Part shown: positions 1-52,602 of the stretch, piece by piece | Position numbering within the stretch: position 1 is the stretch's first letter | How the letters are laid out: each line of letters starts with the position of its first letter | Assembly (NCBI GenBank): GCA_007693855.1 | Contig: RECU01000053.1 | Location: forward strand, 21,559 to 85,558 | Source of the DNA: Gammaproteobacteria bacterium | GTDB taxonomy: Bacteria; Pseudomonadota; Gammaproteobacteria; Steroidobacterales; PWYM01 | Reading direction: 5' to 3' | DNA: 64,000 nt | Translations under genes and position numbers: made by a program | The notes under the pieces: generated by a model | Seen by the model: only the letters and a program-made list of their open reading frames with translations | Told to the model about the DNA's origin: nothing | The model's database searches: none

Positions 1-2573
1 TGGGTGATACCGGTCGCCGACAGCAGATCTTCGTCTTCCTCCGGCGACGCCTCGCCCGGCGCCTGTGCGGCCTGCGTGCCGGTGATCTCCGGCTCACCGA
101 TGTCGAACAGCGCCTCTCTGGCGTCCGTCCCCTCCGCATCCACCAGGGCCTGCTCAGCCTGGTCGGCGTCGCCGAGATCGATGACCGCTTCGCCGAGGCC
201 GGTCACCTCGATATCTTCATCCGAGAGTTCGACGTCAAGGCCTTCGAGGTCGAGCCCCAGATCATCAAGATCGATCTCGGCGGTCGAACCCGCGTCGAGG
301 CCTTGCAGACGCGCGTCGAAGCCCCCCGGACGGGGCTGCTCGAGCGTCGGTGCTTCGACCGTCGCGGCGCTATCCGGCCGCGGTGACTCCACAGTCTCGT
401 CGCCAGCCCACAGCTCCGGCGCAGGTGACTCAGCCGTCTCCGAGAGCTCCGGTGACTCGATGGTCGGGGTCTCCATGGTCGGCGAGTCGGCCGCAGCCTC
501 GTCGTCATCCAGCAGTCCGCGCTCGATGTTCGTGGCGGTACGCGAGCCGATATCCAGCATGAACGCCTCTTCCGCGGCAGCTTCCGCCGCCTCCGGATCG
601 TCCTCGAACTGCATGTCGAGACCCGCACTGGTGGCGCTGCTCAAGGCGTCCTCGGGGTCTTCCTCCACCTCGAAGTCCAGCGAGTAGATCCCCGTGTCCT
701 CGCCGCCTTCAAAATCAAGTTCGAGATCTCCGCTGGCGGTCTCGCCGGCGAACAGAGGCTCATCGGGGCAGATCTGGCGGGCCATGATCAGCGTCTTGTC
801 CCACTCGGCGCCGTCGCCGACCTGCTCCTTGAGTGCACGCGCCGCCTCGATGAAGCCCGCCTGGTTGCCCCAGACGAAATAGATTTCAACCAGCTTGAGA
901 TGCAGATCCGATCGCGCCGGCGCGTCGGCAAGTGCCTGCTGGACGAGATCGGCGGCCTGGTCATACAACCCATAGGCCATGTGAAAGTCCGCCTCGGCGA
1001 GCCGGTCACCGTCGCTGACTTCCTGGGCGTGCACGCCCGTTTCCGCCGCCGTCCCGGCACCCTGGGCAGACGCGCCGGTGGCCAGCGCAGCAGCAGCGCC
1101 CCCCCCAGCAGCCGCCATCCGTTGCGTCCGTTCACCCTCGAGGGTCTCCGGCAAGGGCTCGAAGCTCTCCGCCGGCAAGGACTGATCCTCGGCGAGATCT
1201 TCGGCAGTCGCCGCCTCCCAGGGGTCGGCCTCGGCGGCACGCTCCCGGCGCCGACGCATGAACACAGCCAGGGCGCCCACCAGGGCAGCAGCCCCAAGGC
1301 CAATCCAGAGCAGCGGGGTGGCCAGCCAGCCCATGATCTGCTGGACAAGACCAGGCGCCGCGGCCGGCGCAGGTGCTGGCGCCGGCGGCGCGGGCTGAGC
1401 GGCCGGCGGCGGCGATTCGGCAACCGACGGCGCCGGTTCGGCGTCAGGGGCCGGCGCGTCATCCACGAAAATCCGATCCTCGGCGCCCGGAACCCCAGGC
1501 ACCGGCGCGACCGCAGGAGCGCCGTCTACCGTGCGTTGTTCTGCCAGTTGCTGCTGCAGCGTGGCCAGTTCGGCGTCACGAACCTCGAGGAGCCTGCGGG
1601 TTTCCGCCAGCTCATCGCGCAGGCCCGCGGCCTCGTCACGCAACCGCACCGCCTCGTCACGCAGGGCAGCCGCCTCGGCGCGCGCCTCCTCAGCCGCCTG
1701 CCCTGTGCCGCCTGCCGGCGCCTCACCTGGCGCCACGAGCCGCAGCCGCGGCGCGGGCTCAGAGGCTGCCGGCGCGTCACGCCAGGCACGATTCTGGGAC
1801 GCGACACGGGCCGTCGCCTCGGTGGCGGTCATCCGACGCAGCGCCTCGGACGAAGGAATCGCCAGCCGCGCACCCGCGCGGAGTCGGTTGATATTGCCGT
1901 CGAAGGCCTCCGGGTTGGCCTCGAACAGACCCATCATCATCTGATTGAGGCTGATGTCACCGGTCGGCCGCAGCTGCCGGGCCAGGCCGGATAACGTGTC
2001 GTTGCGCTGTACCAGATACGTGCCATCGTCGGCGAGTGTCGGCGCCGGCAGCCGCGCGGCAGGCGCTTGCGGCTGCGGCGTCGCCGCCGGACGGGCCACA
2101 CGGCCAGTGCGCTCGTCGGGCGCCACGGCGGGCGTGCGGGGGGCGGTGACCGGTGCCTCGCGCGCAGGGGTTTCCATGAACGTCGGCGGATCGAGCAGGA
2201 CCGTGTACTCGCGCAGGACGCGACCTCGCGCCCAGCGCGCCTCAACCAGGAAAGTCAGAAAGGGCTCGCGGGCCGCCTGGGTCGAGGTGACGCGCAATGC
2301 GGGCGTGCCGTCGGCCCGCCGAATCACCGCGAAGCGGAGACTGTCCAGGAAAGGCGGCCGCTCGAGCCCCTGGCGCTGGAACGCTTCGAGTGATGCCAGT
2401 TCCACACGCAGAGACGCCAGGTCTTCATCCGAGGCGCTGGTCAGCGGAATCTCTGCAGCCAGGGGCTGGTTGAGTGCAGAGCGCAACTCGATACTGCCCA
2501 GTCCGAGTGCCCAGGCGAATTGCGGCAGGGCCAGCAGCAACGCCGCACCCCAGAAGGCTAGTCTTCGTGCCAT
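1..2573 (-). CDS. fimV: FimV/HubP family polar landmark protein (3' end runs off the window)
   Basis: Absent from the ORF track because no stop codon lies in the window. Segments translated by hand from the ATG at 2573 (GGAG RBS): MARRLAFWGAALLLALPQFAWALGLGSIELRSALNQPL (FimV N-terminus), LysM (YLVQRNDTLSGLA...ANPEAFDGNINRLRAG), TM helix near 1250-1330, DRLAEADFHMAYGLYDQA TPR-like motif, acidic tail. Lies downstream of asd, as is usual for fimV. Confidence 0.93.
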   Translation of the reverse strand, partial: MARRLAFWGAALLLALPQFAWALGLGSIELRSALNQPLAAEIPLTSASDEDLASLRVELASLEAFQRQGLERPPFLDSLRFAVIRRADGTPALRVTSTQAAREPFLTFLVEARWARGRVLREYTVLLDPPTFMETPAREAPVTAPRTPAVAPDERTGRVARPAATPQPQAPAARLPAPTLADDGTYLVQRNDTLSGLARQLRPTGDISLNQMMMGLFEANPEAFDGNINRLRAGARLAIPSSEALRRMTATEATARVASQNRAWRDAPAASEPAPRLRLVAPGEAPAGGTGQAAEEARAEAAALRDEAVRLRDEAAGLRDELAETRRLLEVRDAELATLQQQLAEQRTVDGAPAVAPVPGVPGAEDRIFVDDAPAPDAEPAPSVAESPPPAAQPAPPAPAPAPAAAPGLVQQIMGWLATPLLWIGLGAAALVGALAVFMRRRRERAAEADPWEAATAEDLAEDQSLPAESFEPLPETLEGERTQRMAAAGGGAAAALATGASAQGAGTAAETGVHAQEVSDGDRLAEADFHMAYGLYDQAADLVQQALADAPARSDLHLKLVEIYFVWGNQAGFIEAARALKEQVGDGAEWDKTLIMARQICPDEPLFAGETASGDLELDFEGGEDTGIYSLDFEVEEDPEDALSSATSAGLDMQFEDDPEAAEAAAEEAFMLDIGSRTATNIERGLLDDDEAAADSPTMETPTIESPELSETAESPAPELWAGDETVESPRPDSAATVEAPTLEQPRPGGFDARLQGLDAGSTAEIDLDDLGLDLEGLDVELSDEDIEVTGLGEAVIDLGDADQAEQALVDAEGTDAREALFDIGEPEITGTQAAQAPGEASPEEDEDLLSATGIT

Positions 2574-2706
2574 TGCTACTCCCGTCCCGCTGCCCCTGGT
2601 GCCAGCCGGGAAACCCGGCGGTCATTGCCGTCGATCACGTCGGGGAACCCGACGTAAGCCGATAAGTTTACTGATCTTATGTCGACAATACCGTGAAGTG
2701 CAGCGT

Positions 2707-6968: not shown

Positions 6969-7863
6969 CGCGGCGGGTGGACCGTCGGCGCCGGACCGCC
7001 CGACGCTGCGCGAACGCGCTTTCCTGTGGCTGCAATACCTGCTGCCCCGCCGCAGACTCAGTGCCCTGGTCCATCGCCTGGCGCGCAGCCGGAAACCCTG
7101 GCTGAAAGATCTGCTGATCCGCGGTTTCATGCGCCATTTCCGCATTTCGCTGGAGGAGGCCCAGGTGCGCCGGGCCGAGGACTTCGGGAGCTTCAACGAG
7201 TTTTTCACCCGTGCCCTGGTGGCGGGTGCGCGGCGCATGCCGGACGACCCGGAGGCCATCGTGTCGCCCGCCGACGGCCGGCTCTATCACGCCGCGGCCC
7301 TCGACGGCGATCGCATGCTCCAGGCCAAGGGCCACCACTATTCGCTGGAGGCCCTGCTGGCCGGTCATCCCCGCGCGGCGGACCTGGCCGATGGACTGGC
7401 CTTCACGGTCTATCTGGCACCTTACAACTACCACCGTTTTCACATGCCGCTGGACGGGCAGCTCGTCGCAATGAGCCATGTGCCGGGCGACCTGTTCAGC
7501 GTCAATGAGACCACCGCCCGCCTGTTGCCCGGACTGTTCGCGCGCAACGAGCGGGTGGTCTGCCACTTCGACAGCGATTGCGGTCCCGTCGCGGTCGTGC
7601 TCGTCGGGGCGCTGAACGTGGGCAGCATCGAGACGGTCTGGGCGGGTGAAGTGACCGGCTGGGGCGGGCGTGAGGTCCGGCACTATGACTACACCGCGCA
7701 GGGCGGGGTCAAGCTCGCACGCGGCGAAGAACTCGGCCGCTTCAATATGGGCTCGACGGTGATTGTCGTGCTGCCGCGCGGCGGCGTGCAGGTTGCCGAG
7801 GATGTCGTCGCCGGACAGGTCGTACAGGTCGGCCAGGTACTGGCCCGACGTCACCGCGGATGA
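6949..7863 (+). CDS. psd: Phosphatidylserine decarboxylase proenzyme
   Basis: FNEFFTR, SPADG, YHRFHMP, RNERV, FNMGST autocleavage motif. Confidence 0.97.
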   Translation: MSASDADAAGGPSAPDRPTLRERAFLWLQYLLPRRRLSALVHRLARSRKPWLKDLLIRGFMRHFRISLEEAQVRRAEDFGSFNEFFTRALVAGARRMPDDPEAIVSPADGRLYHAAALDGDRMLQAKGHHYSLEALLAGHPRAADLADGLAFTVYLAPYNYHRFHMPLDGQLVAMSHVPGDLFSVNETTARLLPGLFARNERVVCHFDSDCGPVAVVLVGALNVGSIETVWAGEVTGWGGREVRHYDYTAQGGVKLARGEELGRFNMGSTVIVVLPRGGVQVAEDVVAGQVVQVGQVLARRHRG

Positions 7864-8816
7864 CCCCGGTGGGGGTGGCGCCACGGGCGCTGCTGCGCCG
7901 GCGCGCCGCCCTGCTCGCCCGTCTTCGCGACTTCTTCGCCCGCCGCGGCGTGCTCGAAGTCGACACCCCGCTGCTCGCCGCCACCACCACACCGGACCCG
8001 GCGATCGCCAGCCTGGAAGTGGTGAGCCCACTGCAGCGTGGCTGGCGCGGTTACCTGCAGACCTCGCCGGAGTTCGCAATGAAGCGCCTGCTGGCGGCCG
8101 GCAGCGGCGACATCTATCAGCTCGGTCATGTCTTCCGCGACGGCGAGGGCGGGCGGCGCCACCTGCGGGAGTTCACCCTGCTCGAGTGGTACCGTATCGG
8201 TTACGACGAACATCGACTGATGGACGAAGTCGCCGAGCTGCTGGCGGCACTGCTGCCCGCTGCCGGCACCGCCGCAGAGCGGCTGAGCTACCGCGCCGCC
8301 TTCGAGCGCGCCACTGGCATCAATCCGCTGAGCGCCGATGCGGCCGCGCTGTCGCGCGCCCTGGTGGCGGCAGACGTGGCGGTGCCGTCCGGACTGTCCC
8401 GGCGGCAGCTGCTGGATCTCGCCATGGGCACACTGGTGATTCCCGGACTGGGCCATGCCGGGCCATGCTTCGTGCATGATTACCCCGCCGACCAGGCGGC
8501 GCTGGCAGCGATCAATCCTGGCGAGCCGCCGACTGCGGCGCGCTTTGAGGTATTCCTCGCCGGCCTGGAGCTCGGCAACGGCTTCCGCGAGCTCACGGAT
8601 GCCGTGGAACAGCGCCGGCGCTTCGAGCAGGAACGGGCCTGGCGGGCGGCACAGGGGTGGCCAATCCCGCCGCTGGACGAAGCGCTGCTGGCGGCGCTGG
8701 CCGCCGGGCTTCCCGAGTGCGCGGGGGTGGCCATGGGCGTGGACCGACTGTTGATGCTGGCCCTGGACGTTGACGACATCCGGCTGGTGGTACCGGTGGA
8801 GCCTGATGATGCTTGA
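7860..8816 (+). CDS. epmA: EF-P lysine aminoacylase EpmA (GenX/PoxA)
   Basis: LQTSPEFAMKRLLAAG, FRDGE, EFTLLEWY, ELGNGF, GVAMGVDRL; LysRS catalytic domain without an anticodon domain; near efp. Confidence 0.97.
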   Translation: MTPVGVAPRALLRRRAALLARLRDFFARRGVLEVDTPLLAATTTPDPAIASLEVVSPLQRGWRGYLQTSPEFAMKRLLAAGSGDIYQLGHVFRDGEGGRRHLREFTLLEWYRIGYDEHRLMDEVAELLAALLPAAGTAAERLSYRAAFERATGINPLSADAAALSRALVAADVAVPSGLSRRQLLDLAMGTLVIPGLGHAGPCFVHDYPADQAALAAINPGEPPTAARFEVFLAGLELGNGFRELTDAVEQRRRFEQERAWRAAQGWPIPPLDEALLAALAAGLPECAGVAMGVDRLLMLALDVDDIRLVVPVEPDDA

Positions 8817-9312
8817 GACCGACCTTGACACCCAGCGCCTGGCCCGCGGCGACTATGCGCCGCTGCTGTCGCAGCTCGACGGCCTGCTCGCCGGTGAGTC
8901 CGACCTCGGCGCCAATGCCGCGAACCTCGCAGCGCTGGCCTTTCACGCCCTGCCGGACGTCAACTGGTTCGGCTTTTACTGGCTGCGCGGCGACACCCTG
9001 GTGGTCGGCGCCTTCCAGGGCCGGCCGGCCTGCACACGCATCACGCTCGGTCAGGGAGTCTGCGGCGCGGCAGCCGCACGCCGCGAGACGGTGATCGTCG
9101 AGGACGTCCATGCCTTCCCAGGCCACATCGCCTGCGACCCGGCCTCGCACTCGGAGATTGTCGTGCCGCTGGTCGCGGGCACTCGGTTGCTCGGCGTCAT
9201 GGACGTCGACAGCCCGCTACCGGCGCGCTTCGACAGCCGCGACCGCGCCGGCCTGGAGACGATGGCAGCACGCCTGCTGGCGGCCTCGGGAGAGACTCCA
9301 CCGCTGCCCTGA
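8806..9312 (+). CDS. msrC: GAF-domain free methionine-R-sulfoxide reductase (MsrC/YebR family)
   Basis: NWFGFY, FQGRPAC, GVCG, HIACD, SEIVVP, DVDSP; start placed at the ATG at 8806 overlapping the epmA end. Confidence 0.9.
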   Translation: MMLETDLDTQRLARGDYAPLLSQLDGLLAGESDLGANAANLAALAFHALPDVNWFGFYWLRGDTLVVGAFQGRPACTRITLGQGVCGAAAARRETVIVEDVHAFPGHIACDPASHSEIVVPLVAGTRLLGVMDVDSPLPARFDSRDRAGLETMAARLLAASGETPPLP

Positions 9313-9357
9313 GTCCGGCCTGAGACCCTCGTGAGCCGCCGCGGGGGCGGCACCCGC

Positions 9358-9927
9358 TCAGCTTTTCACACGGGAGACGTATTCGCGGCTGCGCGTATCC
9401 ACGCGGATGACCTCGCCCTCCTCGAGGAACAGCGGCACGCGCACCGTCGCCCCGGTCTCGAGCTTGGCCGGCTTCACCCCGCCCTGAGCGGTGTCGCCAC
9501 GCAGGCCGGGATCGGTCTCGACAATGCGCAGTTCGACGAAGTTCGGCGCCGCCACCTGCAGCGGCACACCGTTCCACAGGGTGACCCGACACAGATCACC
9601 ATCTTTCAGGAAATCTGCCGCCTCTTCCACGCAGTTGGCATCGGCACTGAACTGCTCGAAGGTATCCGGGACCATGAAATGCCAGAATTCGCCGTCCGTG
9701 TAGAGATACTGCATGTCGGTCTCATGGACGTCCGCCGACTCTACCGACTCGTTGGACTTGAAGGTCTTGTCGACCACCCGCCCGGTCTTGAGATTGCGGA
9801 TGCGCACACGGTTGAACGCCTGGCCCTTGCCCGGCTTCACGAACTCGTTCTCCACGATCGTACAGGGATCACCGTCGATCAGGATTTTCAAACCGGCGCG
9901 GAATTCGTTGGTACTGTAGCTGGCCAT
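9358..9927 (-). CDS. efp: Elongation factor P (lysine/PGKG type)
   Basis: [28 protein letters not shown]. Confidence 0.99.
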
Positions 9928-9955
9928 GCAGGTGCCCCGTTGAGCTGACTCGCTC

Positions 9956-9965
9956 TATGATAGCA
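9956..9965. promoter_or_regulatory. Overlapping -10 elements for divergent efp and epmB
   Basis: TATGAT on + (9956-9961) and extended TGCTATCAT on - (9965-9957) in the 85-bp divergent gap. Confidence 0.5.
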
Positions 9966-10012
9966 GGCCCACACGCAGACTCCGCAGCCGCCCGCCGATA
10001 CCCGACCCCACC

Positions 10013-11053: not shown

Positions 11054-11168
11054 CGGTCGAAACCGGAACGGGGTCACAAAGCTGTGGACTGCGTCGCGGT
11101 CCACGTCACAATCCGCTGCCAGACTTCAGTCCTGCCCCGAAGGTGCCCTGTCAACGGCACCACAGGCC

Positions 11169-13290: not shown

Positions 13291-13306
13291 TGTGATGCAG
13301 TTCTCA
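13291..13306. promoter_or_regulatory. CRP/Vfr/Clp-like binding site
   Basis: TGTGA-TGCAGT-TCTCA, 9/10 match to TGTGA-N6-TCACA, intergenic, upstream of the FimV-like gene. Confidence 0.6.
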
Positions 13307-13390
13307 GTTCGAACCCCTCGCCAGACTGCCAGGATGGAAACCCTGAACCGTGCACGGGCGATCGGCACCGGCAACGTTAGGCTGTCAGCC

Positions 13391-30212: not shown

Positions 30213-30223
30213 GGGGTCGCCGG

Positions 30224-30718
30224 TCAGCTGATCAGGAGGCTCGCGAGGAACAGCGGCACCCACGCGTAGAGTGCTGCCACCAGGTCGTCGAGCATAATCC
30301 CCGTGCCCCCGTGGATTCTGTGATCCATCTCGCGTATCGGCCAGGGCTTCCAGATATCGAACAGCCGGAACAGCAGAAACGCGGCAAGCAGCCAGCCGAC
30401 ACCCTGTGCGGGCAGCAGCAACGCCAGCAGCAGAAACGCCGCGATCTCATCCCAGACAATGGCCGGGTGATCATGGACCCCGAGGCGGCGCGCGCTGACG
30501 CCACACACGAGCACCCCGCCGATACAGGCCACCGCGACCACCACTGAATGGACACTCCAGGGCAGCTGCAACAGCAGCAGATGCAGCGGCACGGCGGCCA
30601 GAGTGCCGAAGGTGCCGGGTGCGCGCGGCACAAGCCCGCTGCCGAAGCCCAGGGCCAGCCAATGCACCGGGTCTGTGGCGAACTCACGGAAACTGATCGG
30701 ACGACAGGTGCTGGCCAT
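30224..30718 (-). CDS. pgpA: Phosphatidylglycerophosphatase A
   Basis: GFGSGL, APGTFGT, HDHPAIVWDE, FRLFDIWKPWP, GIMLDD. Confidence 0.96.
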   Translation of the reverse strand: MASTCRPISFREFATDPVHWLALGFGSGLVPRAPGTFGTLAAVPLHLLLLQLPWSVHSVVVAVACIGGVLVCGVSARRLGVHDHPAIVWDEIAAFLLLALLLPAQGVGWLLAAFLLFRLFDIWKPWPIREMDHRIHGGTGIMLDDLVAALYAWVPLFLASLLIS

Positions 30719-41987: not shown

Positions 41988-44900
41988 TCAGCCGACCCAG
42001 CGGCGCGCGTTGTACCAGAGCTGCATCCAGGGACCGTCCTCACCCCAGCCGGGCGGATGCCAGGAATGCTGTACCGTGCGGAACACCCGCTCGGGGTGCG
42101 GCATCATGATGGTGACTCGCCCGTCAGCACTCGACAGCCCGCAGATACCCTCGGGAGCCCCGTTCGGGTTCTCCGGATAATGCTCGGTCGGTCGACCATG
42201 ATGGTCGACATAACGCAGCCCCACCAGGCCGGCCGCGAGCGCCTGTTCCGGCGCGTCCGGCGCGGCGAACAGGGCCCTGCCCTCACCATGGGAACTGGCG
42301 ATCAGCAACCGCGAGCCCTGCATGCCGGCCAGCAGCACCGAGGGCGAATCCAGCACCTCAACCAGTGACAGGCGCGCCTCGAACTGCTCGGAACGGTTGC
42401 GCACGAAGCGTGGCCAGTGCGCTGTGCCCGGAATGAGACTGTGCAGCGCCGAGAGCATCTGACAGCCGTTACAGACGCCGAGCGTAAAGGTATCGCTGCG
42501 CTCGAACCACGCGGCGAACAGCTCACGGGCGCGCGCATTGAACAGGATGCTCTTCGCCCAGCCCTCACCGGCACCGAGCACATCGCCGTAGCTGAAGCCA
42601 CCACAGGCGACCAGTCCACGGAAACCGTCGAGATTCCGGCGGCCCGAGAGCAGATCGCTCATGTGGACGTCCACCGCAGTGAACCCCGCGCGGTCGAAGG
42701 CCGCGGCCATCTCCACGTGTGAGTTGACCCCCTGTTCACGCAGGATGGCCACCTCGGGCCGCGCCCTGCCAGTGATCGCCGGCGCCTGCGGGCGGAAGTG
42801 CACGGCCACGTGCAGCCCCGGATCTGTGTCGTCGAGGTCGAGCTCACGGGCCTCGTCGGCGCAGGCCGGGTTGTCGCGCAACCGCTGCAGCCGCCAGCTG
42901 GTGTCTGACCAGCTGGCGCGCAGGCTCAGCCGATCGGCCTCGAGCACACCCTGTGCGCCCTGGCGAATACGAATCTCACGGCCCGGACGCGCCCGCCCGA
43001 GCGGCACAAGCGCCTCCGCCAGGCCTGCCGCGGCGAACAGCTCGCGGGCAGCGTCCAGTGCCTCGCCGCGCAGCTGTAAAACGGCACCAGGCTCCTCCGC
43101 AAACAGCATCGCCAGCGCGTCGGTATCTTCGGGCAGCTCGATTTCCAGGCCGCAGTGCCCGGCAAAGGCCATCTCGACCAGCGTCACCGCCAGCCCGCCG
43201 TCGCTCCGGTCGTGATAGGCGAGGATGGCCTCCTGCTGACGCAGGGTGGCCATGACCCGGAAGAATCCGGCGAGCCGCGCCGGGTCATCGAGATCGGCCG
43301 GCTCGTCACCGAGCGCACCATACACCTGGGCCAGGATCGAGCCGCCCAGACGATTCCGGCCGGCCGACAGGTCGACCAGCACCAGCACGCTATCGTCGTG
43401 GTCGAGACACAGCTGGGGATCGAGGGTACGGCGCGCATCAGTCACCGGTGCGAAGGCCGAGATGATCAGTGACAGCGGCGCCAGGACCGTGTGCTCCTGA
43501 CCGTGCTCGGACCAGCGCATGCGCATCGACATCGAATCCTTGCCGACTGGGATCGCGATACCCAGTGCCGGGCAGAGAGCCTCGCCGAGCGCCTGGACCG
43601 TGTCATACAGCACGGCGTCCTCGCCCGGCGCGCCGGTCGCAGCCATCCAGTTCGCTGACAGGCGGACCTCCGCCAGACTCGCCACATCCGCCGCCGCCAG
43701 ATTGGTGATCGCCTCGGCGACCGCCAGCCGCGCCGAGGCCGGCCCGGACAGCAGCGCCACGGGGGTGCGCTCGCCCATGCTCATGGCCTCACCGGCATAC
43801 CCGTCAAAATCGGCGAGCGTGACTGCCACGTCGGCCACCGGCACCTGCCAGGGCCCGACCAGCTGGTCACGGGCGCTCAAGCCCCCCACGGTGCGGTCGC
43901 CGATATGGATCAGGAAGGACTTGTCGGCCACTGCCGGATGGCTCAACACCCGATGCAGGGCGGCGACCGGCGACAGCCCGGCCGGCAACCAGGAAATGGT
44001 GGGGGTCGGCTCGCGATGCACCTCGCGCAGCATCTTCGGCGCCTTGCCCAGCAACACCTCCATGGGCAGATCGACCGGACGGTTCTCGAACACCGGATCG
44101 CTGACCGCCAGCAGCTGCTCGGCGGTGATGTCGCCGAGCACGGCGTAGGGGCAACGCTCACGTCGGCACAGGGCGTCAAACGCCTCCAGTGACGCCGGCG
44201 CGATGACCAGCACGTAGCGCTCCTGCGCCTCGTTGCACCAGATCTCCATGGGCGACATGCCCGGCTCGTCGCTCGGAATGGCGCGCAGGTCCACCCGCGC
44301 ACCGCGGGCGCTGTGATCGACGGCCTCCGGCACCGCATTGGACAGCCCGCCGGCGCCCACGTCGTGGATCAGCAGCACCGGGTTGTCTGCCCCCAGCGCC
44401 CAGCACCGGTCGATCACCTCCTGGGCGCGACGCTGCATCTCCGGGTTGTCGCGCTGCACCGAGGCGAAATCCAGGGCCTCGTCGCCTTCGCCGGCGTGCT
44501 TGGAGGACGCCGCACCGCCGCCCAGCCCGATCAGCATCGCCGGGCCGCCCAGGACAATCAGCTTGCCGCCGACCGGCACCTCCGCCTTCTCGACATGCCC
44601 GTCGCGGATGTTCCCCAAGCCACCGGCAATCATGATCGGCTTGTGATAGCCACGCACGACCTGGGGGTCAGCGGTCAGCTGTTCAAAACTGCGGAAGTAG
44701 CCGGCGAGATTAGGCCGACCGAACTCGTTGTTGAAGGCCGCCGCGCCAATCGGCCCTTCGAGCATGATGTCGAGCGCCGAAGCGATGTGCCCGGGACGAC
44801 CGAAGTCGAACTCCCAGGGGCGGGTCGCCCCCGGGATGCGCAGATGCGAGACGGAGAACCCACAGAGCCCGGCCTTCGGCCGCGCGCCCCGACCGGTCGC

Positions 44901-45860
44901 GCCTTCGTCGCGGATCTCGCCACCGGCACCGGTGGCCGCGCCCGCGTAGGGCGCAATGGCGGTCGGGTGATTGTGGGTCTCCACCTTCATGAGAATGTGG
45001 ATGGCTTCCTCGTGGCCGGCGTAGCGGCCGGTCGCGGGATCGGCGAAGAAGCGTCGGCCGCGGCTGCCGCTGATCACGGCAGCGTTGTCCTTGTACGCCG
45101 ACAACACGCCGTCGGGCGCATGCCGGTGGGTGTTGCGGATCATGTCGAACAGGCTGTGCGGCTGGATCTCGCCATCGATGACCCAGTCGGCGTTGAAGAT
45201 CTTGTGCCGGCAGTGCTCGGAGTTCGCCTGGGCGAACATCATGAGCTCGACGTCGGTGGGATCACGCGCCAGGCGCGTGAAGTTCTCGACGAGATAGTCG
45301 ATCTCGTCTGCCGAGAGCGCCAGGCCCAGCGCAGCATCGGCCTCCTCGAGCGCCGCCCGCCCGCGAGTCCCGAGCTCGATCCGGGCCAGCGGACGGGGTT
45401 TGTGCTCAGCGAAAATCTGCGCGCGCTCGGGCGCGCGGCAGAGCAGCGACTCGGTCATCCGGTCATGCAGCATGGCCCCGAGCTGTTGCAGGCGCTCCGG
45501 CGAGAGCGCGTGGGTGGCGGCAAGCTCGAAGCGCACGCCACGCTCGATGCGCAGCACCGCGTCCAGCCCGCAAAGCCGCGCGATATCGGTGGCCTTGGAC
45601 GACCAGGGCGAGATCGTGCCCAGCCGCGGCACCACCCACAGGGCCTGACCACAACCACCGTCTCGGGGGGCTTCACCCCCATAGGTCAACAGCTGTGCCA
45701 GCACGTCCTCGTCGGACGGTGCCAGCGTCTGGCGCGTGTTCACGTAATGCTCGAAATCGGCGCGCACCGCCTTGACGGCAGGCTCGAGTTCCCGGACACG
45801 CCGCAGCAACTTCTCGAGACGAAAACCCGACAGGGCCGGCGGACCCGCGATCAACAGCAT
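41988..45860 (-). CDS. purL: Phosphoribosylformylglycinamidine synthase (large type)
   Basis: [42 protein letters not shown]. Confidence 0.99.
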
Positions 45861-45960: not shown

Positions 45961-46728
45961 TCACGGGACCAGCGTGAGCCAGTCCGTGCCGCCATCCTGG
46001 TCGGCCAGCAGCACCCTGGCCGACGCCGACCCCAGCGCCGTCTCCAGTGCACCGCGCGCCAGTGCCGGCGTGTTGTTCTGCTCGGAGAGATGCACCCCTA
46101 CCAGCCATTGCAGTCGGCTCGGGTCCTGCAGCGCGGCGAGCTCGGCGGCCTGGTCGTTGTTCAGATGCCCGAGCTGCCCCCCGACGCGGCGCTTCAGCGC
46201 CGGTGGATAGGCCCCGGCGTTCAACATGGCAAGATCGTGGTTGCACTCCACCGCAAGGCCGTCACACCCTGCGAGACGCTCGCGCAGGAACGGCGTGATG
46301 TGGCCCGTGTCGGTGAGCACGCCGAGCCGGCAGCCCCCGCCTTCGAACAGAAACTGGCAGGGCTCGCGCGCATCGTGCGGCACCGGCAGCGGGTGGACCG
46401 TCACCGCACCCAGCCGGAATGTCGCATGGGCACTGATGCACTCGATACGCGCACGGTGGTCGCCGGCGCCGATTGCCCAGGCCGTGCCGGAGGTCAGGTA
46501 GACGGGAATGTCGTGGGTGGCCGCCAGGCGCAGCACGCCGCTGGCGTGATCGCCATGCTCATGGGTGACCAGCAGCGCCGAGAGGTCGGCTGGCGTCCGG
46601 CCGAGGCGCGCCAATCGTCGCGTGGTCTCCGCCAGCGAAAACCCGCAGTCGATCATCAGCACGGTGTCGCCGCATTCCACCAGCGCGCCATTGCCGCGGC
46701 TGCCGCTGCCCAGATAAGCCAGACGCAT
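45961..46728 (-). CDS. MBL-fold metallo-hydrolase (YycJ/WalJ-like)
   Basis: LGSGSRGN, THEHGDH, PHDA, LTDTG, ECNHD, GHLNN, HLSEQNN. Confidence 0.92.
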   Translation of the reverse strand: MRLAYLGSGSRGNGALVECGDTVLMIDCGFSLAETTRRLARLGRTPADLSALLVTHEHGDHASGVLRLAATHDIPVYLTSGTAWAIGAGDHRARIECISAHATFRLGAVTVHPLPVPHDAREPCQFLFEGGGCRLGVLTDTGHITPFLRERLAGCDGLAVECNHDLAMLNAGAYPPALKRRVGGQLGHLNNDQAAELAALQDPSRLQWLVGVHLSEQNNTPALARGALETALGSASARVLLADQDGGTDWLTLVP

Positions 46729-46743
46729 GGGTGTCGGCGCCGG

Positions 46744-47103
46744 TCAGCCGCCCGCCCCGGAGCCTCCGCCGCCGGAGCCGCCACCGCCCGGCGGATACAT
46801 CTGCACCGGAAACTGGGCGACATTGCCCCCCTCCGCGCCGGAAATCTTGCTCACACCCTGCTTGTCGACCTCATCGATCCGGATGATGGAGTGCATGGGC
46901 AGATAGCTGCGCTTCACGCCCTCGAATTCGGCCTTGATCCGCTCCTCGGCAGGATCCACCACGACGCTGGAGCGCGCGCCGAACACCAGTTCCTCGATCT
47001 CGACGAAACCGAACATCGCACCCTGCGAAATGCTCCTGGCGTACACCTCGTAGACCTTACCCTGGTTGATGAAAATGACGCGGTACATCTGTCTGTTGGC
47101 CAT
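46744..47103 (-). CDS. DUF1820 family protein
   Basis: YRVIFINQGKVYEVYA, VVDPAEE, EFEGVKRSYLPMHSIIRIDEV. Confidence 0.85.
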   Translation of the reverse strand: MANRQMYRVIFINQGKVYEVYARSISQGAMFGFVEIEELVFGARSSVVVDPAEERIKAEFEGVKRSYLPMHSIIRIDEVDKQGVSKISGAEGGNVAQFPVQMYPPGGGGSGGGGSGAGG

Positions 47104-47275
47104 GCAGGTCCCTTGCCGCTGGTTAGCGTAATCTCAAGCATAACGGCTCGCGTCGGCGTCGGCACGTCTTCGCCCGTTTGCCGGGGTGAGACCGCCATCA
47201 CAGAACAGCATACCGGATGCGCGCCGCGCGCAGCAGGCAGCCTATACTGCCAGCAGGCAGCCTGTTGGAGCAGTC

Positions 47276-48547
47276 ATGGCCCTGACGCTGGAGATCATCA
47301 GTCAACAGCGCGCTGTGCTCGGCGAGCGCGCCCGCTGCGTGTTCGAGTCCGCGGGCGGTAACATCGGTCGCGCACTGGAGTGCGACTGGGTGCTGCCCGA
47401 CACCCAGCGCTATGTCTCGAGTCGCCATGCCGCCATCGATTTTCGCGGCGGCAGCTACTACCTCATCGACCTTTCCACCAACGGCGTCTATGTCAACGAT
47501 GCCGAGCAGCCCATCGGCCGTGGACGGCCGCAGCGACTGTTTTCCGGGGATCGCCTGCGTATGGGCGAATACCTGATGGTGGCGCATATCGACGACGAGG
47601 ATGAACTCGCAGCGGAGCTCGAGGCAGACAGCCTGGACCCGCTCGCGCGCGCGCAACGGGTCGAAGCGCCCGTACCCCCCGATACCACGCTCATCGATGT
47701 GTTCGAGATGACCGGCGCAGTCGACCTCAGCCTTGATACCGGTGAACCTGCCTTCAAACCGGGGACGACCCAGCCGGTGGATGCCGCACGGCGCCGCCGC
47801 GCGAATTTCGCGGTGGTCGAAGGCGGCGCCGGGACCGCAGAGTCTCCGCGTACACGTAGTCCGCAAGGCGCCCAGGCCGGCGCCAGCGCCGAGCGCAAGC
47901 CGCCTCCCCGGAAGCAGGCGCAGGGGAAGAGCGAGGACGCCGCAGATTCGCCGATGGTGCAGGCCCTGCTGCGCGCGGCGGGGGTGGAGACGGACAGTGT
48001 CGCAGGTCTGGATACCGAGACCGTGATGGTCACGCTGGGTCAGTTGCTGCGCGAAACGGTCGTCGGCCTGCGTGAGGTCCTGCAGGATCGCTCGGATCAC
48101 AAGGCGACGCTGGGCTTGGGCAATACGGCCATCCAGCCGCGCGAGAACAATCCGCTCAAACTCACTGGCAGCACCCAGGACGCCCTGGCCAGACTGCTAC
48201 GCGACGGCAGTCCTGAATATCTGCCGCCGGTGACCGCGCTGCGCGAGGCCTTCAGGGATATCAAGGAACATCAGGCCGCCACCTGGCAGGCCACCCACCA
48301 GGCATTTTTCAACTTCATCGAGCATCTCGACCCGGGCATCCTGGAAGAGCGTTTCACCGAGGGCCAGACACGCCGACCACTGCTGCCGGGGGCTGCGCGC
48401 GCGCGGCGTTGGGAGCAGTATGCCGAGCTCTACGAGGCGCTGACGCGGCACGCCGGCGATCACTTTCCGCCTCTCTACGACGACGCCTTCACCGAAGCCT
48501 ACAGGCGCACCCTGGAGGCGATGCAGACTGCTCGCCGGCGTGCCTGA
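47276..48547 (+). CDS. FHA-domain protein of the T6SS TagH/Fha type
   Basis: FHA core IGR...VSSRHA...STNG; C-terminal ENNPLK, HQAA, WEQY...AF..AY typical of TagH; TATACT -10 at 47243. Confidence 0.88.
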   Translation: MALTLEIISQQRAVLGERARCVFESAGGNIGRALECDWVLPDTQRYVSSRHAAIDFRGGSYYLIDLSTNGVYVNDAEQPIGRGRPQRLFSGDRLRMGEYLMVAHIDDEDELAAELEADSLDPLARAQRVEAPVPPDTTLIDVFEMTGAVDLSLDTGEPAFKPGTTQPVDAARRRRANFAVVEGGAGTAESPRTRSPQGAQAGASAERKPPPRKQAQGKSEDAADSPMVQALLRAAGVETDSVAGLDTETVMVTLGQLLRETVVGLREVLQDRSDHKATLGLGNTAIQPRENNPLKLTGSTQDALARLLRDGSPEYLPPVTALREAFRDIKEHQAATWQATHQAFFNFIEHLDPGILEERFTEGQTRRPLLPGAARARRWEQYAELYEALTRHAGDHFPPLYDDAFTEAYRRTLEAMQTARRRA

Positions 48548-48584
48548 GGCAGCGTAGAACCCCGCGACAGCCCACGCGTAAGGT

Positions 48585-49973
48585 TTACGGTTCAGCGGTG
48601 AACGCTTCGGCGAGTTCTGCCAGCGAGTCGAGTGCCGGCAGATTCAGGGTCCGCTCCCGCAACTCGTCGACCGCCTGGTCGGGCATGATCCGCGCCGCAT
48701 TGTCCTCGAACTTGGCGATGATCTCCGCGGCCGACAAGGGACGACCCTCCGCGCCCCGGTTGACCGCTTCCCGATGCGACAACCGCCGGCCGTCACGGGT
48801 CTCGATCACGACCTCCGCCGGAAACACCCGAGGGTACTCCGACGCGGGATCCGCCGCGTGCTCGCAGCGCGCGGCCAGTGCCAGCACCGTCTCGTCGGCC
48901 AGCGCGTCCGGCTCGAGCTCATCGAGGGTCAGCCGACCGCGCACCAGCGCCACCGCCACCGCAAACTGCACGCTGAACTTGGCCTCATAGTCGCCGCGGG
49001 GCTGCCGCTTGGCATCCGCCGGCTCGCAGACCACCGGCATCTGGTCGGGATGAAGCCGCACGGTGATGCGCGCGATGTCGCCAGCCGTCAGGCCGTGCCC
49101 GGCGCGCAGCGCCAGCGCGGCGTCGATCGGGGCATGGTTGAAGTGGCAGACCGGGTAGGGTTTCACCCCGACCCGCAGCATCTCCCACTCCTCGCCCAGC
49201 GACTCCAGGCGCTCGGCCAGCGCATCGCCGCCGTCGTAGCCGAGATAGCTCCGATACAGGCCGTAACGCCCTTCATAGGGCTGGGCCGGGCCGGTAAAAC
49301 CGCCGCGCGCGAGCGCCGTGGCCTGCAGCGCAGCGGCGGCCGCCCCGCCGGGGTGCATGCGCTTGGTCCAGGCCCCATCCTCGAGAAACTGCATGCTGCC
49401 ACTGGCCATGCTGAGGGCAATGCCCTGGGCGTGATTCAGCGCGACGAAGTCCAGGCCCAGCAGGCGGCCGGCGGCGAGGGTTGCGCCGAATGTGCCCACC
49501 ACCCCGGTCGGGTGAAACCCCTGTTTCTGGAACCGACCATCAACGCTGCCGATACGGGCATCCGCCTCCATCGCCACCAGGTAGGCCGCGACCGCCTGCC
49601 CCCCGCTGGCGCCGCACGCCAGGCCGGCGGCGAGCACGGCCGGCAGGGCACTGGCGGAGGCGTGGACGACGCTCGCGCCGTGGGTATCGTCGTAATCCAG
49701 GCCGTGGATCAGCAAGCCGTTCAGCCAGGCCGCATCGCGCATCGGCAGGCGATCCGGCCAGCCGATCACCGGCGAGTCCCCCTGTCCGGCCAGAGCGACC
49801 GTGGCGGCGCGGCCGCGCTCGGCGAAATCATAGCCGGTGGCCGCCAGGGCCACGCCAAGGGCATCAAGGATATGCAGGCAGGCCCGCTCGATTACCGGCG
49901 CCGGCACCCGGCGCAGATCGAGGCCGAGCGCGAACCCGGAGAGGCGATGGGCGCTGGCCAGGCGGGGCATCAA
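48585..49973 (-). CDS. MmgE/PrpD family protein
   Basis: HGLDYDDTH, GFHPTG, KRMHPG, KPYPVC, AKFS, KF near the C-terminus. Confidence 0.93.
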   Translation of the reverse strand: MMPRLASAHRLSGFALGLDLRRVPAPVIERACLHILDALGVALAATGYDFAERGRAATVALAGQGDSPVIGWPDRLPMRDAAWLNGLLIHGLDYDDTHGASVVHASASALPAVLAAGLACGASGGQAVAAYLVAMEADARIGSVDGRFQKQGFHPTGVVGTFGATLAAGRLLGLDFVALNHAQGIALSMASGSMQFLEDGAWTKRMHPGGAAAAALQATALARGGFTGPAQPYEGRYGLYRSYLGYDGGDALAERLESLGEEWEMLRVGVKPYPVCHFNHAPIDAALALRAGHGLTAGDIARITVRLHPDQMPVVCEPADAKRQPRGDYEAKFSVQFAVAVALVRGRLTLDELEPDALADETVLALAARCEHAADPASEYPRVFPAEVVIETRDGRRLSHREAVNRGAEGRPLSAAEIIAKFEDNAARIMPDQAVDELRERTLNLPALDSLAELAEAFTAEP

Positions 49974-50737
49974 TCGCCGACCGCGGGCAGGGTCAGATCC
50001 GGCTGGAAACCCAGCGTGTAGCTGATGCGGTCGGCGGGATGGTCAGACACGGAGACTTCGTAGGGCCGGTCACCCGCGTTGCGGTAGCGACGCACCACCC
50101 GCAGCGAAGGACTGCCCTCTGCCACATCCAGAGCCCGCGCCTGCTCGGCATTCATCTGCGCAGCCCCCAGCTGGACTTCGACGTGACGCGGCCGTTCGCC
50201 GAAGCGCTCCTCGATCAGCCGATAGACCGGCCGCGCGTCCTGGCCGATCATCCCGGCAATCGCACCATAGGCGGGCAACAGGTAAATCTCAGTCCAGCAG
50301 ATCGCCATGCCGTCATCAATACACCGGCGTACGCCGCTCAGGCGCAGGCGCTGCTCGCCCTCCGGGCAGTGCAGCAGTGACGACTGTTCTGTACCCAGGG
50401 TCAACAGTGCCGAGCCGATCAGATGCAGGCGGGTTTCGCCCGGATAGCGCAGGAACTCGTTGATCGAGACCAGGCGGTGCTGGGTACTCGTGGGCGCCTG
50501 GTCCTTGCGCACGACCGTGCCTACGCCAGGGCGTCGACCCACCATGCCGTGCTGCTCGAGCAGGCGCAGGGCCTCGCGCACCGTGTGCCGGCTGACGCCG
50601 AAGCGCCGCGTCAGCTCAAGCTCACCGGGCAGGCGGTCGCCGACGGCGAACTGCCCTGCGCTGATCTCGCCGATGAGCGTATCGGCCACCTCGCGGTACC
50701 GCGGCTCGCGACGCCCCCCAGCGTCATCGTTGGCCAT
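49970..50737 (-). CDS. GntR family (HutC/UTRA) transcriptional regulator
   Basis: GDRLPGE, FGVSRHTVREAL, GVGTVV wHTH plus UTRA-type C-terminus; GGAGG RBS before the ATG at 50737. Confidence 0.92.
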   Translation of the reverse strand: MANDDAGGRREPRYREVADTLIGEISAGQFAVGDRLPGELELTRRFGVSRHTVREALRLLEQHGMVGRRPGVGTVVRKDQAPTSTQHRLVSINEFLRYPGETRLHLIGSALLTLGTEQSSLLHCPEGEQRLRLSGVRRCIDDGMAICWTEIYLLPAYGAIAGMIGQDARPVYRLIEERFGERPRHVEVQLGAAQMNAEQARALDVAEGSPSLRVVRRYRNAGDRPYEVSVSDHPADRISYTLGFQPDLTLPAVGD

Positions 50738-50826
50738 ACCGGCCTCCACGAATCGCCTTGCGGCTGACCCCTGTGTTTAACCGAGGGGCGACGGCAAGTC
50801 CAGCGCCGTTTCTGGCGTCAGGCTGT

Positions 50827-51747
50827 TCAGCGGGCGTCGTCAGTGCTCAGCCAGTCGCGCGTGGCCGGCTCGTGCATGCGCCAGTCGCGCGCGCTGACCG
50901 GCGAATGGCGGCGGAACAGCAATATGCCCAGATCATCAGGTTTACTGGGCAGGAGCGTGCCGTTGTGCAGGCCTGGACCACACATTCGCCTGGCCACCTT
51001 GCCCTGCAGATTACGCATGGCCACGCCAAGCTCGCCACAGCGAATGGTCTCGAGGATTTCCTCGACGAACAGGTTGTCAAACAGGCCATCACTGGCAAGC
51101 AGCAGCGTATCGCGCGCCGCGAAAGGCATCTCCGGACCGACCTCGATGCGCATCTCGGCGCTGCCGATCACGTTCGAGATGACGTGCAGCAGCTCGTGGT
51201 GCATGGCCTCGGTAGCATCGAGCAAGCCCGCCTCCACCGCGAAACCCACCGGAGAGTGCGGCACGGTCTGCAGCTTGAGGCGGCCCCGCTGGCCCACCAG
51301 CAGCACGGTCGAGTCGCCCACGTGGTAAGGGCGGACGTAATCTTCACCCACCTCGGCCACCGCCAGGGTCGTGGCCGCACCGCCACCGAGCGCCAGCACG
51401 GCGGCGTTGGCCCGCTCGATGCCGTCGAGCACGGCGCCACGCATGCGTTGCGGATCCCCGCCGATCGACCCCAGCGCATCACCCATCGCAGCCAGCGCCG
51501 CAAGTGCCGCTTCGCGCCCCCCGGCCTGACCACCAACCCCGTCAGCCACCACCAGTACCCAGCAGCGATCGCCTACACGGAAGACGCCCAGGGCGTCCTC
51601 GCCCGCCGTGTCCTTTTGGGGGCTGCGCCCGACATAGGCGCACAGCTGACCGCTGCGCAGGAGGAAGGCTCCGCCCGCGGGCCGTCCGTCCCCGGATTCA
51701 CTGAACAATCGCGTCTCGTCAAGGTAGGTCTTAACGCTGACGCTCAT
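50827..51747 (-). CDS. PP2C/PPM-family Ser/Thr phosphatase
   Basis: GED, VADGVGG, ATTL, HVGDS, NVIG, LASDGLFDN, PDD. Confidence 0.92.
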   Translation of the reverse strand: MSVSVKTYLDETRLFSESGDGRPAGGAFLLRSGQLCAYVGRSPQKDTAGEDALGVFRVGDRCWVLVVADGVGGQAGGREAALAALAAMGDALGSIGGDPQRMRGAVLDGIERANAAVLALGGGAATTLAVAEVGEDYVRPYHVGDSTVLLVGQRGRLKLQTVPHSPVGFAVEAGLLDATEAMHHELLHVISNVIGSAEMRIEVGPEMPFAARDTLLLASDGLFDNLFVEEILETIRCGELGVAMRNLQGKVARRMCGPGLHNGTLLPSKPDDLGILLFRRHSPVSARDWRMHEPATRDWLSTDDAR

Positions 51748-51801
51748 CGCGGCGGTCCGCACCGGCGCAACCCATCAAGCTGCTGCATCATGGCCTGTTC
51801 C

Positions 51802-52602
51802 CTAGGCACCGCGGCCACGCGTCTTGCCACGCAGCCGCCGGAAAGCGTTTTCCATCTGTACCGCATCCCGAAAACGGGCCTGTGGCCGCAACTCCAGCGC
51901 CCGCCGGAGCCACGCGATCGTCGGCGGACGCAGGCGCTGGCGAAGCCGTGCCTGACCGGCCAGCGGCCACGCATACGGCCATTCGGGCAAGGTGCCGCTG
52001 AACATGCGATAGATCACCAACCCAAGCGAAAAGACGTCGGACTGGAACATCGGTCGGCCCAGGGCCTGTTCCGGCGCGAGATAGCCCACCGTCCCCGAGC
52101 CGGACGCCTTGACCGTGCGCAGCGCGATTTTCGAGAAGCCAAAGTCCGTCAGTCGGATGCGATTGTCCGGAAAAAGAATGAAATTATCCGGCTTCACGTC
52201 ACAGTGAATGATCCGCCGGCTGTGCGCATGTGCCAGCGCCGAGAGCATCTGCGAGGTGTAATCCAGAGCCTTGTCGGTGGAGATGCGCCGCGCGAGGCGA
52301 TCAGCCAGCGACTCCAGCCCCAGTGGCATGGCAATCACGAAATGCTCGTCGATGAAACTCGCGTTCAGAATCGGCAGGACATTGGGATGTTCCATGCGGG
52401 TCGCGAGCCGCGCCTCGCGCCGGAAGTCCGCCAGAAAATAATCATCCATCATGTCCGGATGCGGAATCTTCAGCGCCACCCGACATCCGTGGATGGTGTC
52501 GTAGGCCTGGTAGACGGCGCAGCGCGGACCGTCGGCCAGCCGGCGCTCGATCCGGTACTTGCCCAGCTTCTGCCGGGCCCGCAGCAGCTTGGACCTGACC
52601 AT
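51802..52602 (-). CDS. Stand-alone Hanks-type Ser/Thr kinase (non-RD)
   Basis: VALK, EARL, HCDVKPDN, DFG, GTVGYLAPE, SDVFSLG; GAGGAG RBS before the ATG at 52602. Confidence 0.92.
   Translation of the reverse strand: MVRSKLLRARQKLGKYRIERRLADGPRCAVYQAYDTIHGCRVALKIPHPDMMDDYFLADFRREARLATRMEHPNVLPILNASFIDEHFVIAMPLGLESLADRLARRISTDKALDYTSQMLSALAHAHSRRIIHCDVKPDNFILFPDNRIRLTDFGFSKIALRTVKASGSGTVGYLAPEQALGRPMFQSDVFSLGLVIYRMFSGTLPEWPYAWPLAGQARLRQRLRPPTIAWLRRALELRPQARFRDAVQMENAFRRLRGKTRGRGA

Follow-up and report, generated by a model that had tools for sequence, protein, structure and literature searches.

We describe a full-length TagH protein, encoded near a Hanks-type kinase and a PP2C-type phosphatase, in a genome in which we found no type VI secretion system (T6SS). 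The three genes lie in a stretch of 64,000 nucleotides (the window) of contig RECU01000053.1, from a gammaproteobacterial genome (G000; assembly GCA_007693855.1) of the order Steroidobacterales. This T6SS-less set of TagH, kinase, and phosphatase is real. We propose, from sequence comparisons, that the three proteins are a counterpart of the TagE/TagG/TagH threonine phosphorylation pathway that works without secretion, and we give this proposal a probability of about 50%. That they act together, which residue accepts the phosphate, and what the output is, we infer. An initial annotation of the window had assigned these genes to a T6SS-independent docking network on polar FimV scaffolds, which we also consider below. 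The three genes are:

47276-48547, plus strand: orphan TagH/Fha1-family protein of 423 amino acids (Pfam FHA and T6SS_FHA_C)
50827-51762, minus strand: PP2C-type Ser/Thr phosphatase, the second gene of the kinase-phosphatase pair (PP2C_2, 7e-12)
51802-52629, minus strand: STK275, a soluble Hanks kinase of 275 amino acids that consists of the kinase domain only (266 amino acids if it starts at 52602; Pkinase, 4.3e-33)

Reading frames were picked by codon-position G+C, and genes were called from Pfam scans of the plausible frames. These scans confirmed the gene set of the initial annotation: two FimV-type proteins, a FimX-like protein, a kinase fused to a cyclic-nucleotide-binding (cNMP) domain, the FHA protein, the PP2C phosphatase, and the short Hanks kinase. 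The motifs for binding phosphothreonine (pThr) or for catalysis are present in both kinases, in the phosphatase, and in the FHA domain; the exception is the glycine-rich loop of the short kinase.

The window's TagH has an FHA domain (residues 1-110; PF00498, 1.3e-17) with the pThr-binding residues GR31, SSRH48, and NG69, a disordered linker (about residues 118-216), and a helical T6SS_FHA_C domain (about residues 225-423; PF20232, 1.1e-48, profile positions 1-179 of 180). It scores 301.3 bits against the TIGR03354 model for TagH (cut-off 120.25) and covers positions 1-418 of 420, so it is a full-length member of the family. In a structure model, the FHA domain is confident, the linker has a predicted local distance difference test score (pLDDT) below 50 at residues 134-207, and the C-terminal domain is helical. 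A fold comparison confirmed the FHA fold (Z of 15.3, root-mean-square deviation of 2.5 over 102 residues), and the match list for the whole model was filled by FHA folds. A sequence search of the PDB returned only GarA, by its FHA domain (E = 0.005), so that the C-terminal domain has no solved structure there, and an atlas look-up of this domain returned TagH clusters only. We know of no activity for it.

The TagH gene, with both of its domains, is maintained. Relative to the closest genome (G001, at 0.62 synonymous substitutions per site), the ratio of non-synonymous to synonymous rates (dN/dS) for the whole gene is 0.107. The FHA domain has 0.054, the linker 0.142, and the C-terminal domain 0.09, so the gene is under purifying selection. 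The pThr-binding residues are kept in 34 TagH proteins from the chromosomal locus described below (locus-type TagH), as they are in 7 T6SS-linked TagH proteins, and the C-terminal motifs NNPLKF, HQ.A, YW.lY, and AY are likewise kept in both groups. All 34 of the locus-type genes used have an unbroken open reading frame.

As the initial annotation had claimed, the window holds no structural gene of a T6SS. The claim of T6SS independence also holds for the rest of the genome: none of six core families (TssC, TssF, TssK, Hcp, TssM_N, and DotU/TssL) was matched anywhere in it, and its single T6SS_FHA_C match is the window's TagH. (The TagF_N profile also had no match, but the control for that search was silent as well.) The conclusion that the FHA protein and the kinases do not serve a T6SS is thus supported. 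The initial annotation had named a complete T6SS elsewhere in the genome as an observation that would refute it, and on this point the result is in its favor.

This combination is common in the order. Across the window's genus, TagH is found in 6 of 7 genomes and TssC in none of the 7. For the order as a whole, we sampled 121 genomes, G000 among them: T6SS_FHA_C occurs in 72 and TssC in 16; all 16 are within the 72, so 56 of the 72 TagH-positive genomes have no TssC. We also surveyed 201 genomes of the class, each at least 90% complete. Outside the order, 21 genomes of that sample have TagH, and 18 of them also have TssC. The other three do not have DUF1820, the neighbor of TagH in our order, on the TagH contig. 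Given the co-occurrence in 18 of 21 genomes and the absence of DUF1820 from the three exceptions, this pattern of T6SS-less TagH is peculiar to this order.

Within the order, TagH is found at a conserved chromosomal locus, which is marked in the window by three genes:

41988-45860: purL
45961-46728: gene with a metallo-beta-lactamase (MBL) fold
46744-47103, minus strand: DUF1820 core gene (Pfam, 1.2e-41), head to head with TagH across a 172-base spacer

In all 20 of the 20-kb loci that we examined, TagH is head to head with DUF1820, which is followed by purL; the MBL-fold gene is present in 11 of the 20. Among shorter loci, DUF1820 adjoins TagH in 18 of 30, and the other 12 are all from TssC-positive genomes. 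The locus-type set of 34 genomes was drawn from the 20 long loci, short loci of the 18-of-30 type, 2 further loci, and the window. We built a maximum likelihood tree from 44 TagH proteins (34 from the purL locus, 7 linked to T6SS, and 3 from other phyla), after merging identical rows and leaving out 3 rows whose N-terminus did not align. All 34 purL-locus proteins are on one side of a branch with an ultrafast bootstrap of 99 and an SH-aLRT (approximate likelihood ratio test) support of 96; the T6SS-linked proteins and those from other phyla lie outside. (One protein, L037 from genome G003, adjoins tssC on a short contig and was put in the locus group after a quick tree. Another, L025, is from genome G016, which is flagged as unpublished and is also counted in our tallies of T6SS_FHA_C, TssC, the short kinase, DUF1820, FimV_N, and the kinase-cNMP gene; none of our conclusions hangs on this genome.) The window's TagH belongs to a vertically inherited clade that is fixed beside DUF1820-(MBL)-purL in most families of the order. 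What is new here is a TagH clade at DUF1820-purL across an order that is mostly devoid of TssC.

DUF1820 is itself a core gene, as it is present in 111 of the 121 genomes, including genomes of 1.2-1.5 Mb that do not have TagH. It is always beside purL, with a mean column identity of about 69%. Its structure model has a pLDDT of 71, and the best fold match, to Sm/LSm proteins (E = 0.06), is not significant, as no match reached E of 0.001 or below; an atlas look-up returned DUF1820 clusters only. We considered whether TagH and DUF1820 are a functional pair and rejected this because DUF1820 is so widespread and is kept in small genomes that have no TagH.

The kinase and the phosphatase are a conserved two-gene unit. 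We examined 20 loci of the kinase gene, and in every one the PP2C gene comes next on the same strand; no other gene family occurs in more than 5 of the 20 loci, save for shadow frames that overlie the two genes. The short kinase has orthologs in 63 of the 121 genomes, one per genome, at 52-100% identity, and its dN/dS relative to G001 is 0.029. The start at 52602 in the initial annotation is the one used in the closest ortholog. The catalytic motifs VALK51, HCDVKPDN142, DFG162, and APE185 are kept in 27 orthologs, the family also keeps an SGSGT activation segment, and we predict that the kinase is active. The family, for which we compared the window's kinase with loci L050, L071, L082, L089, L092, and L098, has two forms: a long form of about 435 amino acids adds a C-terminal double zinc ribbon (PF12773), and the kinase-domain-only form is found in the window's genus, in families f15 and f20, and in part of f3. 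The phosphatase has the metal-binding aspartate motifs GED54, DGVGG74, SDG224, and DD276.

In the window, the pair lies about 3 kb past the stop codon of TagH, and its far end is about 5 kb from the TagH start. The pair adjoins a locus-type TagH in four families (f1, which includes the window's genus, f2, f11, and f8, the last with 3 genomes) and in 2 loci from metagenome-assembled genomes; in the latter two, PP2C comes directly after TagH, tail to tail. Two further genes lie between TagH and the pair in the window:

48585-49973, minus strand: PrpD/MmgE-family gene (Pfam)
49970-50749, minus strand: GntR/UTRA regulator (Pfam), whose stop overlaps the start of the PrpD/MmgE gene by 4 bases

This insertion varies among relatives. 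Both genes are present in G001, only GntR in G059, and only PrpD in G002 and G011; both are absent from loci L071, L072, L047, and L098, where PP2C directly follows TagH. So, PrpD and GntR are not part of the module in relatives.

TagE, TagG, and TagH are the minimal threonine phosphorylation pathway, and the partners of TagH include TagF, ClpV, and phosphorylated TssL, according to a 2026 review of T6SS accessory factors (PMC13584744). By analogy, the soluble kinase of the window would phosphorylate a threonine on itself, on the TagH linker (Thr146, in the motif E-x-T-G), or on another target. The FHA domain of TagH would then dock on the pThr, the PP2C phosphatase would erase it and so reset the switch, and the conserved C-terminal domain of TagH would relay the state of the switch to some partner outside any T6SS. 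The linker sequence is not conserved among locus-type TagH proteins, and its motif h-x-E-h-T-G-x-h near residue 145, which the initial annotation had quoted as MTGAV, is found in 12 of the 34. All 12 carriers are from kinase-positive genomes, and none of the 11 TagH proteins from kinase-negative genomes has the motif. Of the other quoted linker motifs, TQPV is kept within the genus only, and DTTLI is identical in the window's copy only (the closest relative, G001, has DTTLL). Sites of the form T-x-x-[ILVMFY] number 6 in the linker versus 2.7 expected, and a fraction of 0.024 of composition-preserving shuffles had as many or more (5000 shuffles, as in all of our motif tests).

Data on transcription are compatible with these genes being expressed. 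In one pond metatranscriptome, contigs over parts of DUF1820, TagH, PrpD/GntR, and the short kinase match at 97-99% identity, and carry-over of DNA is possible. Near-identical raw reads numbered 4 and 8 in two metatranscriptomes from sediment and 0 in a third, with about 6% of each run scanned. These matches are too thin for calling expression or operons. A scan of positions 46500-53500 for promoters and terminators found no excess over chance.

The genome encodes more of these protein types than the window does. Genome-wide, G000 has 8 Pkinase, 8 FHA, and 3 PP2C_2 matches, and the kinases include a fusion to transmembrane and TPR segments, one to HEAT repeats, and two REC-kinase fusions. There is a second tight triad on contig C100 (12901-16172), with an FHA protein of 235 amino acids, a PP2C phosphatase, and a kinase with membrane spans and a TPR-like part. 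In three other proteins (on contigs C36, C87, and C75), an ExeA/GspA-like P-loop ATPase part is fused to an FHA domain at the C-terminus, and a protein on contig C107 is a fusion of a nucleotide cyclase and an FHA domain. The initial annotation had described the window's genes as writer, eraser, and reader. This is plausible, as the kinase and PP2C are a fixed pair that adjoins TagH in the window's clade. But given the genome-wide counts and the C100 triad, they are not a closed set.

The most serious alternative to a joint pathway is that the TagH of the purL locus and the kinase-PP2C pair are two unrelated modules, whose proximity in the window is an inherited chance rearrangement. We consider this possible but somewhat doubtful. 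On this view, TagH reads pThr made by another of the 8 kinases or acts via its C-terminal domain alone, and the pair has unrelated targets of its own. Several observations weigh against a joint pathway and in favor of this alternative. First, each module occurs alone. The kinase is found where there is no locus-type TagH (families f5, f7, f12, f13, and f24), and TagH is found where there is no kinase (f16, f17, f18, part of f15, and f4, the last from one genome that is 79% complete). In f10, f15, and f20, TagH and the pair are hundreds of kb to over 1 Mb apart. Second, adjacency of TagH and the pair is confined to one clade of 11 rows in the TagH tree and may be a single rearrangement; in the 20 kinase-PP2C loci, the pair has no conserved neighbor. 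Third, in the window, PrpD and GntR intervene, and TagH is convergent to the pair. Fourth, the 8 kinases, 8 FHA matches, and 3 PP2C matches, along with the C100 triad, imply that the pairing is not exclusive.

Other points weigh against the mechanism itself. No threonine is common to all of the 34 aligned linkers of locus-type TagH, and the correlation of the E-x-T-G motif with the kinase is phylogenetically clustered and was spotted post hoc. The short kinase has no canonical GxGxxG; its N-lobe has L-x-x-G-P-x-A-x-V-Y instead, which is kept in the family. Neither a survey of downstream genes nor the atlas look-up found a partner for the C-terminal domain of TagH: no gene is conserved downstream of TagH across the order (feoB is there in family f15). 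Also, with DUF1820 present in nearly all genomes as a core gene, its place beside TagH may be no more than inherited synteny.

Against unrelated modules, the adjacency is kept over four families and 2 loci from metagenome-assembled genomes, down to about 40% identity of TagH, and the E-x-T-G motif is found only in kinase-positive genomes (12 carriers, versus 0 of 11). The pathway known from T6SS also relies on precisely these three protein types (PMC13584744). As a single event may account for the adjacency, and as each module is also found alone, we put the three proteins acting together at about even odds.

A second alternative is the model of the initial annotation, in which the kinases, PP2C, and TagH are a phospho-docking layer on the tails of FimV and the FimX-like protein, with a cyclic-nucleotide input. 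The genes in question are:

3-2573, minus strand: FimV1, the first 857 codons of a 1102-amino-acid protein that runs off the window (FimV_N, 2e-41)
10932-13259 (likely start 11169), plus strand: FimX-like PAS-GGDEF-EAL protein (EAL, 1.8e-51; GGDEF, 4.1e-15; PAS, 9.7e-09)
13292-15196, plus strand: FimV2, a shorter protein encoded directly after the FimX-like gene (FimV_N, 1.5e-11; LysM, 1.3e-4)
28908-30263, minus strand: Hanks kinase with a cNMP-binding domain (Pkinase, 1.2e-45; cNMP_binding, 9.8e-15)

The full FimV1 has FimV_N, a hydrophobic membrane span, an acidic tail of 658 residues (171 of them Asp or Glu), and the usual C-terminal segment. FimV2 has a membrane span and an acidic tail of 228 residues, and its FimV_core match (37 bits) is below the cut-off of 43.45. 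Many relatives likewise have two FimV_N matches, the second some 10 kb away from FimV1, and hence the pair of FimX-like and FimV2 genes looks conserved.

The initial annotation had quoted five threonine motifs in acidic and probably disordered regions. All five exist, the FimV tails are acidic, and the FHA linker is modelled as disordered. The two motifs of the FimX-like protein are not in a disordered acidic tail, however: DDTLAM is at the junction of GGDEF and EAL, and DNTSML is within the last 10 residues. It also asked for two motifs to be scored for enrichment, and here the outcome is split. The FHA-type motif, T-x-x-[ILVMFY], is no more frequent than expected in the FimV1 tail (10 sites versus 8.6 expected, fraction 0.34) or in the FimX-like protein (11 versus 10.2, fraction 0.44). 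For the FimV2 tail, the excess is marginal (9 versus 5.0, fraction 0.04), and it is just as marginal in a control, the periplasmic part of FimV1, which is beyond the reach of cytoplasmic kinases (9 versus 4.9, 0.036). In contrast, T-x-E-x-P occurs 7 times in the FimV1 tail versus 0.28 expected, a count that none of the 5000 shuffles reached.

This excess is due to a tandem repeat, approximately P-T-[MV]-E-[TS]-P-T-[IL]-E-x-P with an invariant threonine, at residues 715-767 of FimV1 (about positions 273-431 of the window, minus strand). One T-V-E-Q-P-R-P also occurs on its own close to the C-terminus. Among the orthologs (L105-L164), those of several families have the repeat at the same place, with up to 13 copies of T-x-E-x-P, and it is nearly absent from others. 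A second repeat in FimV1, encoded on contig C18 of G000 upstream of the start of the window (about residues 905-965), has five copies of approximately D-D-x-x-T-R-[LFR]-[AI]-x-S-L, versus 0.06 expected, for a pattern chosen post hoc. The closest genome has 3 copies, and a few other orthologs have single matches at chance level, none with two or more.

We compared FimV1 orthologs from 61 genomes, 37 with a locus-type TagH and 24 without. At least 3 copies of T-x-E-x-P are present in 29 of the 37 but in only 2 of the 24. When the motif is tightened to T-[VILMA]-E-x-P, at least 2 copies are present in 26 of the 37 and in 0 of the 24; both the strict motif and its threshold were picked after seeing the data. 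These counts look strong, but the association is inseparable from shared ancestry. In a tree built from the first 400 residues of FimV, which excludes the tail, 16 of the 24 TagH-negative genomes are in one group. Well-supported branches allow just 2 independent pairs, of which 0.7 on average are concordant and 0 are discordant (sign test, p = 1). One contrast within a family (f8) is concordant.

So, it seems improbable that the T-[VILMA]-E-x-P repeats of FimV are pThr docking sites that are read by a T6SS-less TagH under the neighboring kinase and PP2C. In favor of this idea are the repeat with its invariant threonine, at the same place in orthologs, its association with TagH, and the fact that both the TagH linker and the FimV tails are disordered or acidic. 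However, characterised FHA domains prefer I, L, V, or D at the +3 position, which in the repeat is occupied by T, S, A, or Q. Families f17, f20, and f14 are TagH-positive and have 0-1 copies of the repeat. FimV is near-universal, with FimV_N in 99 of the 121 genomes, including families that have neither TagH nor the kinase. Also, our search of the literature, which left subscription journals outside, found no publication tying FimV to Hanks kinases or FHA domains. With T-x-x-hydrophobic sites not enriched and the co-occurrence of the repeat resting on at most two supported contrasts, the claim that FimV or FimX are substrates is not supported, and we judge the docking model as a whole to have little chance of being right.

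The location of the genes does not help this model either. The initial annotation had cautioned that co-location of these dispersed genes is weak evidence, and rightly so: in many complete genomes, FimV, the FimX-like gene, the kinase-cNMP gene, and TagH are in the same order at similar distances, with FimV 35-45 kb from TagH. Their co-location is core-genome synteny and carries no weight as a functional cluster. Similarly, nothing ties the proposed cyclic-nucleotide input to the other parts. The kinase-cNMP fusion (motifs GQGSTG45, VAIK64, HRDIKPSN164, and DFG184; the start at 30212 in the initial annotation is an internal ATG) is a separate conserved gene, with single full-length orthologs at 63-96% identity in 29 of 31 relatives, from nearly all families, in the same neighborhood.

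Third, TagH could be a functionless remnant of a T6SS island that was lost from the purL locus. Genome G096 (family f3; L102-L104, contig C11, 18000-77999) speaks for this: a complete island of about 47 kb, with tssA, B, C, hcp, tssE, F, G, clpV, vgrG, tssJ, K, and M, lies between a locus-type TagH and DUF1820-MBL-purL, and its loss would give the arrangement seen in the window. The TagH at the edge of the island has the same 3.18-kb spacing to tssC as in G003. The locus-type TagH of G096 is split over two frames. The island also holds a second TagH of its own, a PP2C gene, 2 kinase genes, and a ShlB-type gene, and with such a set of its own, insertion of the island explains the arrangement as well as ancestral presence followed by loss. 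A relic is also hard to reconcile with open reading frames that are intact in every locus-type gene used, with dN/dS of 0.05-0.14 in all three parts of TagH, and with the conserved residues of both domains being kept across families. We therefore consider this very unlikely.

Finally, a T6SS cluster that TagH and the kinases serve could have been missed in the assembly of G000, which is a draft (3.29 Mb in 114 contigs) in which absence is never proof, but this is extremely unlikely given marker genes that indicate 100% completeness and 0.7% contamination, the lack of all six core families, the lack of TssC throughout the genus, and complete single-contig genomes of the order (for example G050, G066, G099, and G109) that have a locus-type TagH and no TssC.

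The window as a whole is a slice of the conserved core chromosome. Its other genes are housekeeping genes: asd, aroC, efp and its modification genes, topoisomerase genes of the parC/parE type, dxs, rib genes, glyA, purL, cydABDC, mltF, guaA, and guaB. The genes for elongation factor P and its lysylation are grouped at 7860-11053, with a GAF-domain gene between them:

7860-8816, plus strand: EpmA-like class II synthetase paralog
9358-9927, minus strand: efp
10013-11053, plus strand: radical-SAM gene, KamA/EpmB-like

TagH/Fha1 is usually annotated and discussed as a T6SS accessory. Here, a TagH clade is kept across an order under purifying selection, at a housekeeping locus, in genomes that have no T6SS, which shows that the protein has a function and a partner that are independent of secretion, and this includes its "T6SS" domain. 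Annotation pipelines will label the gene as "type VI secretion system-associated," which is misleading for surveys of T6SS gene content. As several of the carriers have complete genomes in a single contig, there may be cultured strains in which genetics is possible. If the docking model were true after all, then TagH, which is known only as an assembly factor for secretion, would serve the polar pilus hub throughout the order as a phospho-dependent adaptor; the tail repeat of FimV, with its invariant threonine, is a concrete and cheap target for phosphoproteomics.

Our literature search, with the same coverage (subscription journals outside), found nothing on a T6SS-less TagH clade, on the function of DUF1820, or on phosphorylation of FimV. 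We met no description of a T-[VILMA]-E-x-P tandem repeat in the FimV literature, and the motif itself was not a search target. The passages of the 2026 review on TagH that we consulted (PMC13584744) make no mention of it in T6SS-less genomes.

Among known systems, FimV1 resembles FimV/HubP in its FimV_N domain, in its membrane span and long acidic tail, and in its conserved C-terminal segment, and the FimX-like protein of the window shares the PAS-GGDEF-EAL arrangement of FimX. In actinobacteria, FHA proteins (FhaA/FhaB), a PP2C phosphatase (PstP), and Hanks kinases (PknA/PknB) are co-encoded and perform general pThr signaling that is unrelated to secretion. Those FHA proteins do not have T6SS_FHA_C, however, and those kinases are membrane proteins with sensor domains; the C100 triad of G000 resembles that cluster.

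The closest likeness is to the TagE/PpkA-TagG/PppA-TagH/Fha1 pathway of T6SS (in the H1-T6SS of Pseudomonas aeruginosa, in Serratia, and in Agrobacterium). The same three types of protein are present here, the window's TagH is full-length with both domains, and the three genes are neighbors in the window's clade. In contrast to that pathway, no T6SS was found in the genome, TagH is at a housekeeping locus beside purL, and the partner TssL was not found in G000. PpkA is a membrane kinase with a periplasmic sensor, whereas the window's kinase is a soluble protein of 275 amino acids; the long forms of its family add a zinc ribbon and have no membrane or sensor part. TagH may act beyond its own T6SS elsewhere as well: in Vibrio cholerae, TagH represses hlyA, and the cluster has no TagE kinase (PMC13584744). 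V. cholerae keeps its T6SS, with tagH inside the cluster, whereas in this order a whole clade of TagH is found in genomes that have no T6SS.

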